Positions 5,241 through 9,035 of a DNA stretch of 64,000 nt are shown here, piece by piece; position 1 is the stretch's first letter; every line of letters begins with the position of its first letter. A model generated the notes under the pieces. It saw nothing but the letters and a program-made list of their open reading frames with translations, ran no database searches and had not been told where the DNA came from. The stretch lies in the NCBI GenBank assembly GCA_963669175.1, contig OY769902.1, positions 3,520,001 to 3,584,000 of the forward strand. Direction: 5' to 3'. Origin of the DNA: a bacterium (lineage in GTDB: Bacteria; Electryoneota; Electryoneia; Electryoneales; Electryoneaceae). Both the position numbers and the translations under genes were made by a program.

Positions 5241-5407
5241 GCCTTTCTTACCGCACCAGATTGATTTAGAGAGCATGTCGAATTGTGTATAGTCGTTCCC
5301 GAAAGTCTTTACTGTTTCAGGTTGGCAGCAGTAGCTTTCTGGCACTGAACATCCTTCTTGGGTAGGGTCGATTCTCCCCAATTGCACTCTTTCGAAAATT
5401 ATTATTA

Positions 5408-5615
5408 TTAGCAGGCTTTAGCCTGCTCCTCTTAGCCCCCGGCTTTAGCCGGGGGCTAAGAGGCCAACAAGGGTTTGAGCGCCCTTCAGGGTGCTTTCCT
5501 GATCCGTATTGATTCGATGAAAAAAAAGCACGCTAAAGCGCGCTCATAGCTTTTGTTATTTCCATCCACCCGGCTAAAGCCGGGTGCTAAGAGAAGCCTG
5601 CTGAAGCAGGCTAAT
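5408..5615. repeat. Six-palindrome REP/REPIN-like module (CTTTAG/CTGAAG-loop family), copy 1
   Basis: AGCAGGCTTTAGCCTGCT, CCCCCGGCTTTAGCCGGGGG, GAGCGCCCTTCAGGGTGCTT, AAGCACGCTAAAGCGCGCTC, CACCCGGCTAAAGCCGGGTG, AGCCTGCTGAAGCAGGCT; inverted copy at 38590-38795. Confidence 0.85.
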
Positions 5616-5730
5616 CGCTTTCGAATCAGCAATAACTTTCGAGTTCCTATGTTAAACGACAGGCGCATCAAGTCGTGTTGGAACTGCTATCTTAGCAGTA
5701 TTCCATTTTTCCAACACAAGGAGAAGCGCC

Positions 5731-6792
5731 ATGTCGAAGAACCAAGTTATTGCAGCGGACCGTTCATTGTCTATAGGTCTGGATGTTGATTCGCAGACTT
5801 CTTTCGCCGTTGTGCTCGACACCCAGACTGGTGAAGTGCTCTTTGAGAATCGGATCAAGCATGACTCAGCCGCCTGGGAACGCTTCTTTGCCCGTTTTCC
5901 CAACTGCCGCATGTGGGCGTGTTATGAAGCGGGCCTCACCGGCTTTGGCCTCTGTCGTTACCTGATCGGCCAAGGTGTTGACTGCCAGATCGCGCCGCCC
6001 AGCCAAGTTCCCAAAGGGGCGCAAGCGAAGCAGCAGAAGACCGATCATCTGGATGCCCTTACCTTGGCCCACATGTTCTGGACACCACCTCGTACCTGGG
6101 TACATGTCCCCACAGAACAGGAAGAGGCGGATCGTCAGTTGTCTCGCACCCGTGACCAGGTGATGAATGATCGCGTTCGGGTCAAAAACCGAATCAAGAG
6201 TCTGCTATTGTTTCACGGTTTACAGTCACCGTTTCCGCCGCAACGCTATTGGACAAAGGAATACCGGCGCTGGTTGCGAACGTGTGATTGTCTGGCCGCG
6301 ACACGGATAGCCATTGATGTTGCTCTCGATGAGCTGGAGGCCATTGAACAGCAACTCAAGGTGATCACCAAAGCGATCAAGGCGATGAATGCGTCCGCAA
6401 CGTATCGGGACCGTACCCAGCGCCTGCGCCAGGTGAAGGGAGTGGGCGAGTTGACCGTGAACGCCTTCGTGACCGAGATGTATCGTCCCGAACGCTTCGC
6501 ATCCGGTAAGCAAGTCGGCGCACATCTTGGCTTGACGCCGTGTGAATGGTCAAGCGCCAACACACGCCATATGGGACACATTACCCACTGGGGACCGTCC
6601 CATCTACGAAAACTATTGGTCGAAGCTGCGTGGCGTTGGGTGCAAAAAGATCCGTATGCAAAGAAGAAATACGATGCGATCCATGCCGGGAAAACACGGA
6701 AAGTGGCGATCGTCGCCATGGCACGAAAACTAGCCGTGATACTGTGGGCCATGCTGGTCAAAGAACAAGACTACAATCCTGCCTGCGTATAA
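5731..6792 (+). CDS. IS110-family DEDD recombinase/transposase
   Basis: GLDV, YEAG and KTDHLDA (RuvC-like D-E-D-D); C-terminal GVG...GLTPCEWSS...LRKLLVEAAW...AIVAMARKLA. Confidence 0.95.
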   Translation: MSKNQVIAADRSLSIGLDVDSQTSFAVVLDTQTGEVLFENRIKHDSAAWERFFARFPNCRMWACYEAGLTGFGLCRYLIGQGVDCQIAPPSQVPKGAQAKQQKTDHLDALTLAHMFWTPPRTWVHVPTEQEEADRQLSRTRDQVMNDRVRVKNRIKSLLLFHGLQSPFPPQRYWTKEYRRWLRTCDCLAATRIAIDVALDELEAIEQQLKVITKAIKAMNASATYRDRTQRLRQVKGVGELTVNAFVTEMYRPERFASGKQVGAHLGLTPCEWSSANTRHMGHITHWGPSHLRKLLVEAAWRWVQKDPYAKKKYDAIHAGKTRKVAIVAMARKLAVILWAMLVKEQDYNPACV

Positions 6793-6836
6793 CCCCAGCA
6801 CTGCTGGCAGGTAGGTAAAGCATAGATTGTGATTGA

Positions 6837-6977
6837 ATCGTCCGATGCCATTGGGAACACGCGACCCTGGTAGTTATTCTGTTGCTTGACAACGATTCGA
6901 GTTTAGGGCGCCGCTGTTCCGTGCGAACAAAAAACCTGTGCCACGAGCACGAATAGCAGAACGGCACATGGGACGAT
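6837..6977 (+). ncRNA. Predicted bridge/seek RNA of the IS110 element
   Basis: Closing stem ATCGTCCgATG/CATgGGACGAT encloses two internal loops; guides TAGTTATTCT (6871-6880) and TTCGAG (6896-6901) match the target flanks. Confidence 0.75.
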
Positions 6978-7026
6978 ACAAAGGCTCTTTACACCCTTGA
7001 CTGTTTACATAGCGGAATAACTATAT

Positions 7027-8490
7027 CTACAGGATATACCGCGACAGATCGTCATCCTCGACCAGGTCGGATAGTGTCTCCTGTACCATCGCCTTCGTGA
7101 CTTCAATCTTCTTGATCCGCTTATTTGGAATCTTGAACAGCCATTCATCCAGCAGTCTTGTCATTACGGTATGCAACCTGCGGGCGCCGATGTTCTCGGT
7201 ACGATCATTAACCGTGGCAGCGAAACGTGCGATTTCACGAATTGCGGCCTTATCGAAAGTCAGCTCAACATTTTCCGCAGAGATCAGCGCTGTATACTGC
7301 TTCACCAGTGAATTGCGAGGTTGAGTCAGGATCTTTACAAAATCCTTTTCGTCCAATGGGTCCAGTTCAACCCGAATGGGGAAACGTCCCTGCAATTCCG
7401 GGATCAGATCAGAAGGCCGCGCCACATGAAATGCTCCTGCCGCAACGAACAGGACATGATCAGAATTCACCGGACCGTATTTTGTGGTTACCCGTGTGCC
7501 TTCAACGACAGGAAGAATATCACGCTGAACCCCTTCCCGGCTCACATCAGGCCCGTTACCCGGCTCAACCGCTGCGATCTTATCTATTTCATCCAGAAAG
7601 ACGATACCGACCTGTTCTGCCCTGTCAATCGCTTCTGCAATAATGGCGTCCATATCCAGCAAGCGGTCAATCTCTTCACCGAGGAGCAGGCTACGGGCTT
7701 CGTCAATCGTGACTTTACGCTTCTTCCGTTTTTGCGGCATCATTCCGCCGAACAGCTCCTGCAGGTTGATTCCCATCTCTTCAATCCCGATAGGACCAAT
7801 CACCTGCATCATACCACCGGTTTTCTCCGGAACACGCAATTCGACAGTAAATTTTTCCAGCTTGCCGCTACGCAGACGTTCACGCATTTTTTCACGTGAA
7901 CGTGCATATCGTTCAGACGCTATCGCAGCCTTTTCTGCTTCTATGCCCTCATCAATCTCATCATCTTCTTCGTCATCATCATCATCACCGTTCTCTTCAA
8001 CCTGCTGCGCGATTCCACTGAGCAGGTCATTCAGGTTTTTCGGGCTGGAAGATTTTGATGATGAAGGTGGCGGCAGCAAGAGATCAAGCAGACGCTCCTC
8101 AACCTTCAATTCAGCAATTTCGCTGACTTCTTCGGTTCGTTCCGAACGCACCATCGCAACCGCAGCGTCAACCAGATCACGAATAATGCCTTCAACATCC
8201 TTTCCGACATAGCCGACTTCGGTAAACTTGCTGGCTTCAACCTTGACAAAAGGCGCTCCGGCCAGTTTCGCCAGGCGACGGGCAATTTCAGTCTTGCCAA
8301 CGCCAGTCGGCCCCATCATGAGGATGTTGTTGGGCAGGATTTCATCGCGAATCGGATCTTCTACCTGTTGACGGCGCCAACGATTCCGTAGAGCAATCGC
8401 AACCGCACGTTTCGCTTCATCCTGACCAATGATGTATTCATCCAGTTCTTTTACGATCTGGCGAGGTGTGTACTCAAAAAGGGATTTCAC
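7027..8490 (-). CDS. hslU: ATP-dependent protease ATPase subunit HslU
   Basis: TPRQIVKELDEYIIGQ, GPTGVGKT, KFTEVGYVG, DEIDKI, ELQGRFPIRVEL, C-terminal DLSRYIL. Confidence 0.97.
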   Translation of the reverse strand: MKSLFEYTPRQIVKELDEYIIGQDEAKRAVAIALRNRWRRQQVEDPIRDEILPNNILMMGPTGVGKTEIARRLAKLAGAPFVKVEASKFTEVGYVGKDVEGIIRDLVDAAVAMVRSERTEEVSEIAELKVEERLLDLLLPPPSSSKSSSPKNLNDLLSGIAQQVEENGDDDDDEEDDEIDEGIEAEKAAIASERYARSREKMRERLRSGKLEKFTVELRVPEKTGGMMQVIGPIGIEEMGINLQELFGGMMPQKRKKRKVTIDEARSLLLGEEIDRLLDMDAIIAEAIDRAEQVGIVFLDEIDKIAAVEPGNGPDVSREGVQRDILPVVEGTRVTTKYGPVNSDHVLFVAAGAFHVARPSDLIPELQGRFPIRVELDPLDEKDFVKILTQPRNSLVKQYTALISAENVELTFDKAAIREIARFAATVNDRTENIGARRLHTVMTRLLDEWLFKIPNKRIKKIEVTKAMVQETLSDLVEDDDLSRYIL

Positions 8491-9035
8491 AGCTCAATGA
8501 CCTTCAGGTTGGAATTTGTGTAAATGCAAATATCTGAGGTAATCCGTAGCGACTCGGTGACGATATCGACAGCGGTCAGATCTTTGGCGTGGTCTACCAG
8601 CGCACGAGCAGCCGCTGTAGCATAAGGCGCTCCGCTTCCGATTGCCAGCAAGCCATCATCCGGTTCAATAACGTCGCCATTACCGCTGATTAGGAACAAT
8701 TCCTTTTTGGTGACAGCGATCAGCAACGCTTCAAGCCTGCGCAGGGCACGATCGAGACGCCAGTCTTTCGCCAACTCCACAGCCGCCCTGCGTACATCTT
8801 TCGGATAAGCACGCAGTTTCTCTTCAAAGCGGTCAAATAAGGTTAAAGCATCTGCCACACCGCCCGCGAACCCTACCACAACATTGCCACCATTGAGTTC
8901 GCGCAGTTTATCCGCGCCACCCTTGATAATGGTATCATCAAATGTCACCTGGCCGTCCGCTCCAATGGCGCATTTGCCCTTGTAGCGCACTGCCAGAACA
9001 GTTGTACTACGAACTTTTCCTGGATATAGACTCAC
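8487..9035 (-). CDS. hslV: ATP-dependent protease peptidase subunit HslV
   Basis: STTVLAV (N-terminal Thr nucleophile), DGQVT, GFAG, AIGSG, ICIYTN. Confidence 0.97.
   Translation of the reverse strand: MSLYPGKVRSTTVLAVRYKGKCAIGADGQVTFDDTIIKGGADKLRELNGGNVVVGFAGGVADALTLFDRFEEKLRAYPKDVRRAAVELAKDWRLDRALRRLEALLIAVTKKELFLISGNGDVIEPDDGLLAIGSGAPYATAAARALVDHAKDLTAVDIVTESLRITSDICIYTNSNLKVIEL

Follow-up and report, generated by a model that had tools for sequence, protein, structure and literature searches.

Bridge recombinases are under development as genome-editing tools, and to our knowledge almost all mechanistic work on them rests on IS621 and its near relatives. An insertion sequence of another layout, present in a 64,000-nt stretch of an Electryoneaceae genome (hereafter the window), raises the question of whether the RNA that may be encoded in its 3' non-coding region (NCR) reads the element's own ends as well as the target DNA, and whether the bases beside its guides are placed to pair with the opposite substrate once a strand has been exchanged. 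An initial annotation of the letters had proposed that an IS1111-type element encodes a bridge RNA with two loops, and that loop 2 contains donor guides and handshake-like dinucleotides. The analysis below supports the first part of this proposal and divides the second. We consider 6921-6967 to be the probable donor-binding part of a bridge or seek RNA in the 3' NCR of an IS1111-type insertion sequence with core AG, and put the probability of this reading, which is drawn from sequence comparison, at about 0.8.

The boundaries of the element were set by comparing occupied with empty sites. A search of the 5.45-Mb genome returned 12 copies of 5600-7060 at 99-100% identity, and among the sequencing-run contigs a collapsed repeat contig covers 5641-7013 at a depth about 11.5 times that of single-copy sequence. 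Within one repeat family, empty paralogous sites read ...AAATCG-AG-AACAGCTATA (in a longer read, ...GGAATAAAATCG-AG-AACAGCTATA) and occupied sites read ...AAATCG-AG-[TTCC...ATAGC]-AG-AACAGC, the element's termini being TTCCTATG...TTTACATAGC. One core is present at empty sites and two are present at occupied ones, the crossover core being the 2-nt AG, and no target duplication longer than this core was found between the empty and occupied paralogous sites compared. As 12 junctions could be set against empty repeats, the body is placed at 5644-7013 (+ strand, 1370 bp) with an AG core position on both sides, which bears out the boundaries implied by the initial annotation. In the window copy the left target flank (LT) is TTTCG at 5637-5641 (+), as read from the junctions of the 12 copies and the empty sites, and is followed by the left core AG at 5642-5643 (+), which matches the guides, is derived from the element and is AG in 12/12 copies. 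The right core at 7014-7015 (+) is GG, a target-derived variant of a position that is AG in 8/12 copies, and the right target flank (RT) AATAACTA at 7016-7023 (+), read from the sequence and the 12 junctions, begins with AA at 7016-7017.

Junctions compared with empty paralogs place ten of the 12 copies in two repeat families. These landing sites are repeated extragenic palindrome-like elements, found at 5390-5640 of the window and in many other places of the genome (for example G000 3078111, 848493, and 236651). In type 1, GC-rich hairpins precede tandem units of the AATCAGCAA type and the repeat ends in ..TTTCG-GG-AAC, while type 2 ends in ..GACGGAATAAAATCG-AG-AACAG; the type-1 repeat at 5404-5468 matches the Rfam family psRNA14 below threshold (36.3 bits against a cut-off of 60). 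Two copies lie outside both families: c7 (G000 5242032-5243418), where the guides described below fit on the left and partially on the right, and c12 (4336267-4337650), where they fit the right flank only. From their sequences, both look like natural half-matched insertions. The window copy lies just downstream of two minus-strand ORFs of 487 and 182 aa within 7027-9035, which, going by their translations, we take to resemble HslU and HslV.

The element is an IS110-family insertion sequence with an IS1111-type layout. Its transposase/recombinase gene (5731-6792, +, 353 aa) encodes the DEDD/RuvC-like N-terminal domain (PF01548; E 5e-18, 65.7 bits) and the IS116/IS110/IS902 C-terminal domain (PF02371; E 8e-20, 71.5 bits) of that family, both above the cut-offs, and insertion is site-specific at a short core common to the target and both junctions. 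The features of the IS1111 group are likewise present: the NCR downstream of the recombinase gene is long, with 221 nt from the stop codon to the right end (6793-7013) and 87 nt from the left end to the ATG (5644-5730), and there are subterminal inverted repeats within the 7-17 bp range of the group. The left repeat, CTATGT(T)AAAC at 5647-5657 (+), is complementary to 7003-7012 at 10/11 positions with one bulge, the right repeat plus terminus reading GTTTACATAGC at 7003-7013 (+); this pair was read by eye, its indel having kept it out of the 25 ungapped pairs listed. The corresponding repeat of one relative, L098, is 13 nt long. The IS1111 C-terminal motif GL-P----S/T-G appears as GLTPCEWSSA in the window protein and as ..SSG in the family consensus. 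The closest named plasmid relatives of the recombinase are ISEc45 (31% identity), IS5708 (29%), and IS5075/IS4321 (25%, over residues 100-349).

A consensus promoter scan found no sigma-70-like promoter in the linear element. Joining of the ends would create one at the circle junction, with a predicted -35 box TTGACT at 6997-7002 (+) and a predicted -10 box TATGTT at 5648-5653 (+) that would be separated by a 17-nt spacer made up of 11 nt of right end, 2 nt of core, and 4 nt of left end. When the ends of related elements were joined in silico, a junction-spanning promoter scoring at least 9/12 was found in 18 of 20. The contigs of four sequencing runs, two of which covered small shares of the stretch only, contained no circle joints, a contig-level result that speaks neither for nor against circles or expression.

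For the comparative analysis, a profile of 49 homologous proteins yielded 80 metagenome loci (numbered L below), and 2 further relatives came from genome collections; a single-protein search of genome contigs gave 3 loci and an order-level genome search one relative, G013. The 3' NCR aligns with that of the window in 18 loci, whose recombinases are 44-56% identical to that of the window element. A covariance model of the donor part (R1) also matches L062, L063-65, and L066, and marginally L098, and within its own genome it gives exactly one match per copy (12/12). The relatives used for covariation between donor guide and right end have transposases that are 28-56% identical.

We infer that an RNA of about 120-145 nt is expressed and processed from approximately 6837-6977 of the + strand. 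No Rfam family was placed on 6800-7010 when 5300-7300 was scanned with E values up to 10, the listed hits being in the upstream repeats or noise. In the structure proposed here, a closing helix, P0, joins a 5' strand at 6837-6849 (+; ATCGTCC at 6837-6843, TGCC at 6846-6849) to a 3' strand at 6963-6977 (+; GGCA at 6963-6966, GGACGAT at 6971-6977). Its inner part, 6846-6849/6963-6966, is paired in 52/52 cells (100%) of 13 relatives, these being 13 of the 16 aligned, as the L049/L051/L053 clade, in which P0 is out of register, was omitted from the alignment. Three of its four pairs have changed on both sides (pair types CG/GC/UA, GC/AU/CG/GU, and UA/GC/CG), and its outer extension occurs in the minimum free energy (MFE) fold of the window and as inverted repeat I6. 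The 5' strand of the target-loop stem P1 (6861-6868, +) carries a conserved GACCnCG motif and pairs with 6905-6911 in the fold; RNAalifold recovered P1 in part. Hairpin H1 in the target loop (6880-6894, +) is closed by U.G and has the loop CUUGA, its closing pairs 42-68 and 43-67 being retained in 96% of cells. Hairpin H2 in the donor loop (6937-6951, +) is formed by U.G, G-C, U-A, G-C, and C-G around the loop CACGA; 96% of its cells are paired and two of four pairs show compensatory change (pair 118-140 is CG in 7 and UA in 5), so that the inner hairpin of the initial annotation is conserved as well as correctly located. Overall, P0, H1, and H2 are 97.7% paired with six pairs altered on both sides, the conserved structure of a bridge RNA, and their covariation score of 0.528 compares with 0.151 in shuffles, none of 500 scoring as high. 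These values come from a re-registered alignment (A5), since RNAalifold on the first MAFFT alignment (A2), in which the hairpin regions were misaligned, recovered H2 alone. Folded as a single sequence, the window RNA gains modestly over shuffles (z -1.74, with 6/200 folding as well), and its MFE fold contains extended P0, P1, and H1, and lacks H2.

One part of the earlier structure had to be replaced. The outer stem GTGC/GCAC that had been drawn around loop 2 (6921-6924/6964-6967) has standard pairs in 34.6% of cells, or 50% in a register shifted by one, in the 13 relatives, and 6963-6966 pairs with 6846-6849 instead. With its 3' strand thus paired to the RNA's 5' end, loop 2 is not a closed internal loop, and the donor guides are placed in a multiloop; in our model this multiloop would be bounded by P0, the target stem-loop, and H2. 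H1 and H2 both begin with a conserved U.G followed by G-C, and as the invariant U.G closing pairs fit the + strand only, the RNA is assigned to that strand. The same pair counts against the proposal that 6938-6950 and its A/T-rich flank form a minus-strand terminator of the hslVU-like operon instead of belonging to an RNA guide. A consensus scan does place a terminator-like minus-strand site at 6950-6938, followed by a T run, but it returned 2 sites against a shuffle mean of 1.2, the hairpin is present in 12/12 copies whatever gene adjoins, and on the minus strand the invariant U.G would become a mismatched C-A; we regard a terminator as very improbable.

Within the target loop, the right target guide (RTG) UAGUUAUUC at 6871-6879 (+) is complementary to GAATAACTA at 7015-7023 in 9/9 positions, and the left target guide (LTG), AUUCG plus core AG, lies at 6895-6901 (+), with TTCGAGTT at 6896-6903 identical to the left junction at 5638-5645. 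Both guides follow their flanks across relatives, as in a bridge RNA. The RTG fits its own flank at 7/8 or better in 9/15 relatives, compared with 10/210 cross pairings, and in an alignment-anchored comparison over the five bases before the core the LTG agrees with its own LT at a mean of 3.43/5, compared with 1.30/5 for cross pairings, with 0/100000 permutations as high. This anchored test replaced one in which the LTG was located by scanning the NCR with the flank, which mislocated several guides and gave 4.8/7 for own and 4.7/7 for cross pairings.

The sequence matches quoted by the initial annotation, namely ATAGCAGAA at 6953-6961 against the right junction ATAGCGGAA at 7009-7017 (8/9), AACC at 6933-6936, the inner hairpin at 6937-6951, and the left-junction guide, are all found in the sequence where it had put them. 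As a control for chance, the 204-nt NCR was shuffled 5000 times with its dinucleotides preserved. A match to the right junction of at least 8/9 arose in 112/5000 shuffles, an 8/8 match to the left junction in 8/5000, and the 9/9 reverse complement of the right flank in 2/5000, while all three occurred together in 0/5000.

We then consider whether the second loop reads the element's own ends. The left donor guide, AAUAGC plus core AG at 6952-6959 (+), reads as the right end ATAGC (7009-7013) plus core, and as it has the same sense as these it would pair with the bottom strand. Guide and right end are both highly conserved, and where they are altered they are altered jointly: both read ATAGT in L053 and ATATC in L098, and the core is TG in the guide and junctions of L052/L056/L059. 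The expectation that loop-2 segments should covary with the terminal bases of related elements is therefore borne out for the 3' donor guide in three independent variants.

The opposing view is that loop 1 is the sole guide, that the protein reads the ends through the subterminal repeats, and that loop 2 serves as a scaffold or in processing, its AATAGCAG resembling the right end incidentally. In the published text on ISEc11, an 82-nt seekRNA with target matches only is sufficient for transposition (PMC11187229), so that a donor loop is not proven necessary in IS1111-type elements, and its authors stress that end recognition in IS1111 may differ (PMC11187229). The window element does have subterminal repeats, and AATAGCAG is near-invariant, as is the end, which leaves most of the match without covariation. 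Against this, the guide tracks the end where the end varies (C to T in L053, G to T in L098, and core A to T in L052/L056/L059), the similarity between guide and end is limited to 7-10 nt, and the base that follows the core varies with the flank, as would be unexpected of a scaffold. We judge the protein-only reading improbable and favour a donor guide in loop 2. A donor guide that tracks the element's end bears on the choice between RNA- and protein-based end recognition in IS1111-type elements.

The right donor guide (RDG), AAAACC at 6931-6936 (+), is weak in the window element, where AAC forms three Watson-Crick pairs with the G-T-T of the core and left end. Over the family, Watson-Crick pairs at positions x6 to x1 number 7, 11, 16, 13, 13, and 8 of 16; those opposite the core G and the first two left-end bases are found in 13, 13, and 16 of 16 rows, and x5 covaries in part with the third left-end base (G-C 6, A-T 5, A.C 5). 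Position 6936, which lies opposite the first core base, is the sole polymorphic site of the 221-nt 3' NCR, with C in 3/12 copies and T in 9/12; it is T in the collapsed contig, and relatives have either C or T there. The guide of most copies, AACU, pairs with AGTT. The pairing of AACC with GGTT, presented earlier as a designed match, dissolves on comparison of the copies, as it combines two copy-specific variants (C at 6936 in 3/12, GG in 4/12) that coincide in the window copy only. CGAAC at 6924-6928 was also considered as the 5' donor guide and was rejected, since CGAA is conserved regardless of the left-end sequence.

A separate observation concerns L125 (IS5075, from a plasmid record), whose NCR contains a 9-mer complementary to the right flank (2050-2058) and an 8-mer identical to the right junction (2146-2153) that extends 3 nt past ATAGA. 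The right-side matches are clear and the left-side guide is unplaced. Judged from these matches, a junction-spanning donor guide may be general in the IS1111 group.

As described in the text of two studies, each 3'-strand guide of IS621 is followed, 3' of the part that pairs with the core, by two nucleotides termed handshake guides, which pair with positions 6-7 of the opposite DNA once the top strand has been exchanged (PMC11208158, PMC13626964). The bases at the equivalent positions here, immediately after the core-pairing bases of the 3' guides, are UU at 6902-6903 (+) in the target loop, identical to the first two element bases at 5644-5645, and AA at 6960-6961 (+) in the donor loop, identical to the first two right-flank bases at 7016-7017. 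The family was scored with one row per clade, near-identical rows being merged; L062, L058, and L057 were dropped as the needed flank or NCR is missing, and L098, with 2 nt of left flank on its contig, was omitted from the target-loop test. The first base of the donor-loop pair equals the first flank base in 15/17 rows (states A, C, and G) and the element's own base in 0/17, against a permutation mean of 6.35 and with 0/100000 permutations as high. The first base of the target-loop pair equals the element's first base in 16/17 rows (states T and A; p ~0.0006) and the flank's first base in 2/16. The mismatching rows are L033, L051, and L054. Since the rows are related and the independent events few, these permutation figures overstate the support: on the recombinase tree the donor-loop state changes at least five times and the target-loop A state arises once or twice, the placement of L033 being unreliable on account of an implausibly long branch, probably due to ORF extraction. 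Across the family, the first base thus fits the non-cognate substrate and not its own, and to this extent each 3' guide reads as a junction formed by insertion.

The second base behaves differently, with 5/17 matches in each loop, equal to the permutation mean and without a family-wide signal, and the cross-match claimed by the initial annotation accordingly holds for the first base and not for the second. It is nearly an even question whether the guides are real and the handshake dinucleotides partly chance, with the first post-core base selected and the second (U6903, A6961) luck. Beyond the chance-level counts, most relatives have TA at the place of the element's initial TT, and for IS110 orthologues the text of one study reports covariation at position 7, adjoining the core, and not at position 6 (PMC11208158). 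On the other side, both positions match in both loops of the window element (4/4), with 0 pairs to its own substrate, and L062, L066, and L098 likewise agree at both positions of the target loop. By analogy with IS621, the bases would act as handshake guides, forming 0 bp before exchange and 4 after, and the window element would then carry them in the maximal configuration.

The mismatch at the right core allows a different question to be put to the same sequences. G7014, which had been taken for an A/G defect of the donor core that might affect excision, is the target's own base: empty paralogs of that repeat type read GG in 10/14 (..TTTCG-GG-AAC..), and the left core is AG in every copy. The copies with GG at the right core, c1 (the window copy), c2, c3, and c7, are in or like the GG repeat type, and the eight AG copies are mostly in the AG repeat type, where 23/26 empty members read AG. 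Eight elements have differing cores at their two junctions (c1, c2, c3, c7, L048, L050, L054, and L060), and in 8/8 the left junction holds the AG that matches the guides and the right junction the variant, GG or AA, with none reversed. L055 is an exception of a different kind, in which the guides read TG and both junctions AG. The 8/8 left-AG pattern fits inheritance of the first-exchanged strand's sequence only, whereas inheritance of the second strand would give the opposite, variant-left pattern. According to its text, one study finds that the first strand of IS621 is cut 3' of the core, which moves with the left arm (PMC13626964), and a 2026 preprint argues, in the part consulted, that IS621 behaves in a single-strand, copy-and-paste manner. 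IS1111 seekRNAs have their guides in reverse order, as the text of their description states (PMC11187229), and with the order reversed relative to IS621 the handshake-like bases would serve the bottom strand relative to the transposase gene. These patterns could be accommodated if the IS1111-type guide geometry mirrored that of IS621 relative to the recombinase gene and the bottom strand were exchanged first, leaving the core scar as a record, a suggestion that we make tentatively and think somewhat unlikely. If true, it would mean single-strand or replication-resolved integration in nature, with the core inherited faithfully via the left junction, and core scars would show, from sequence alone, which strand's information is retained through integration.

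In the mechanism that we propose, P0 would close the RNA by joining its two ends and would enclose the target stem-loop (P1, the RTG at 6871-6879, H1, and the LTG and core at 6895-6901) together with the donor guides flanking H2. The 5' donor guide AAC(U/C) at 6933-6936 would be complementary to the core and left end, and the 3' donor guide AAUAGC-AG at 6952-6959 would carry the sense of the right end and core. The recombinase, in complex with the RNA, would carry the excised circle (right end-AG-left end) to a target within a repeat, ..TCG-AG-AAYARCTA, strands would be exchanged at AG, and UU at 6902-6903 and AA at 6960-6961 would pair with the other substrate once the strand had been exchanged. 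The genome offers a natural IS1111-type system for such questions, with 12 copies and many empty and occupied targets side by side. A search of literature text found no paper treating handshake guides in IS1111-type elements, 'IS1111' and 'handshake' appearing together in it via reference lists or in separate paragraphs only.

Among known systems, the seekRNAs of ISEc11, ISPa11, ISKpn4, and ISPst6 are, as their published text describes them, like the RNA proposed here in that they come from an NCR downstream of tnp in elements with subterminal inverted repeats, have the top-strand match 5' of the bottom-strand match, and recognise a short specific target (PMC11187229). In that text, Siddiquee et al. 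2024 describe target matches only, without a donor segment or handshake bases (PMC11187229), whereas the second RNA part here covaries with the right end; the transposase is also distant from those of the plasmid-borne IS1111 members. For 93% of IS1111 elements, the text of Durrant et al. (2024) predicts a bridge RNA located in the right end (Fig. 6d, Extended Data Fig. 10c), and it places donor-binding nucleotides in a multiloop in many IS1111 members (PMC11208160); as our comparison was made with text and legends, the clade may already be listed in the supplementary tables or figures of that study. ISPpu9 of Pseudomonas putida, as described in the text of its report, likewise inserts at AG in REP-like repeats and forms circles joined at AG (PMC12288879), yet it is classed with the IS110 group, is without inverted repeats, and encodes its bridge RNA upstream of tnp (PMC12288879), so that an AG core alone does not mark the IS1111 layout.

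The closest mechanistic parallel is the IS621 bridge RNA, with handshake guides at 81-82 and 166-167. As set out in the text of its three descriptions, it shares with the RNA proposed here two loops whose guides, one per strand, extend into a 2-nt core; a pair of nucleotides that follows the 3'-strand guide on its 3' side and can pair with the opposite substrate once a strand has been exchanged; covariation mainly next to the core; and a promoter at the circle junction (PMC11208160, PMC11208158, PMC13626964). Unlike that of IS621, which is encoded 5' of the recombinase gene, the RNA here lies 3' of it; its guides come in reverse order, so that the 3' guides and the handshake-like bases have the sense of the top strand and would bind the bottom one; the core is AG, or CT as read from the opposite strand; and the donor guides sit in a multiloop closed by the ends of the RNA and not in a simple internal loop. 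Taken together, these comparisons identify the element as a fresh natural example of a known bridge RNA system.
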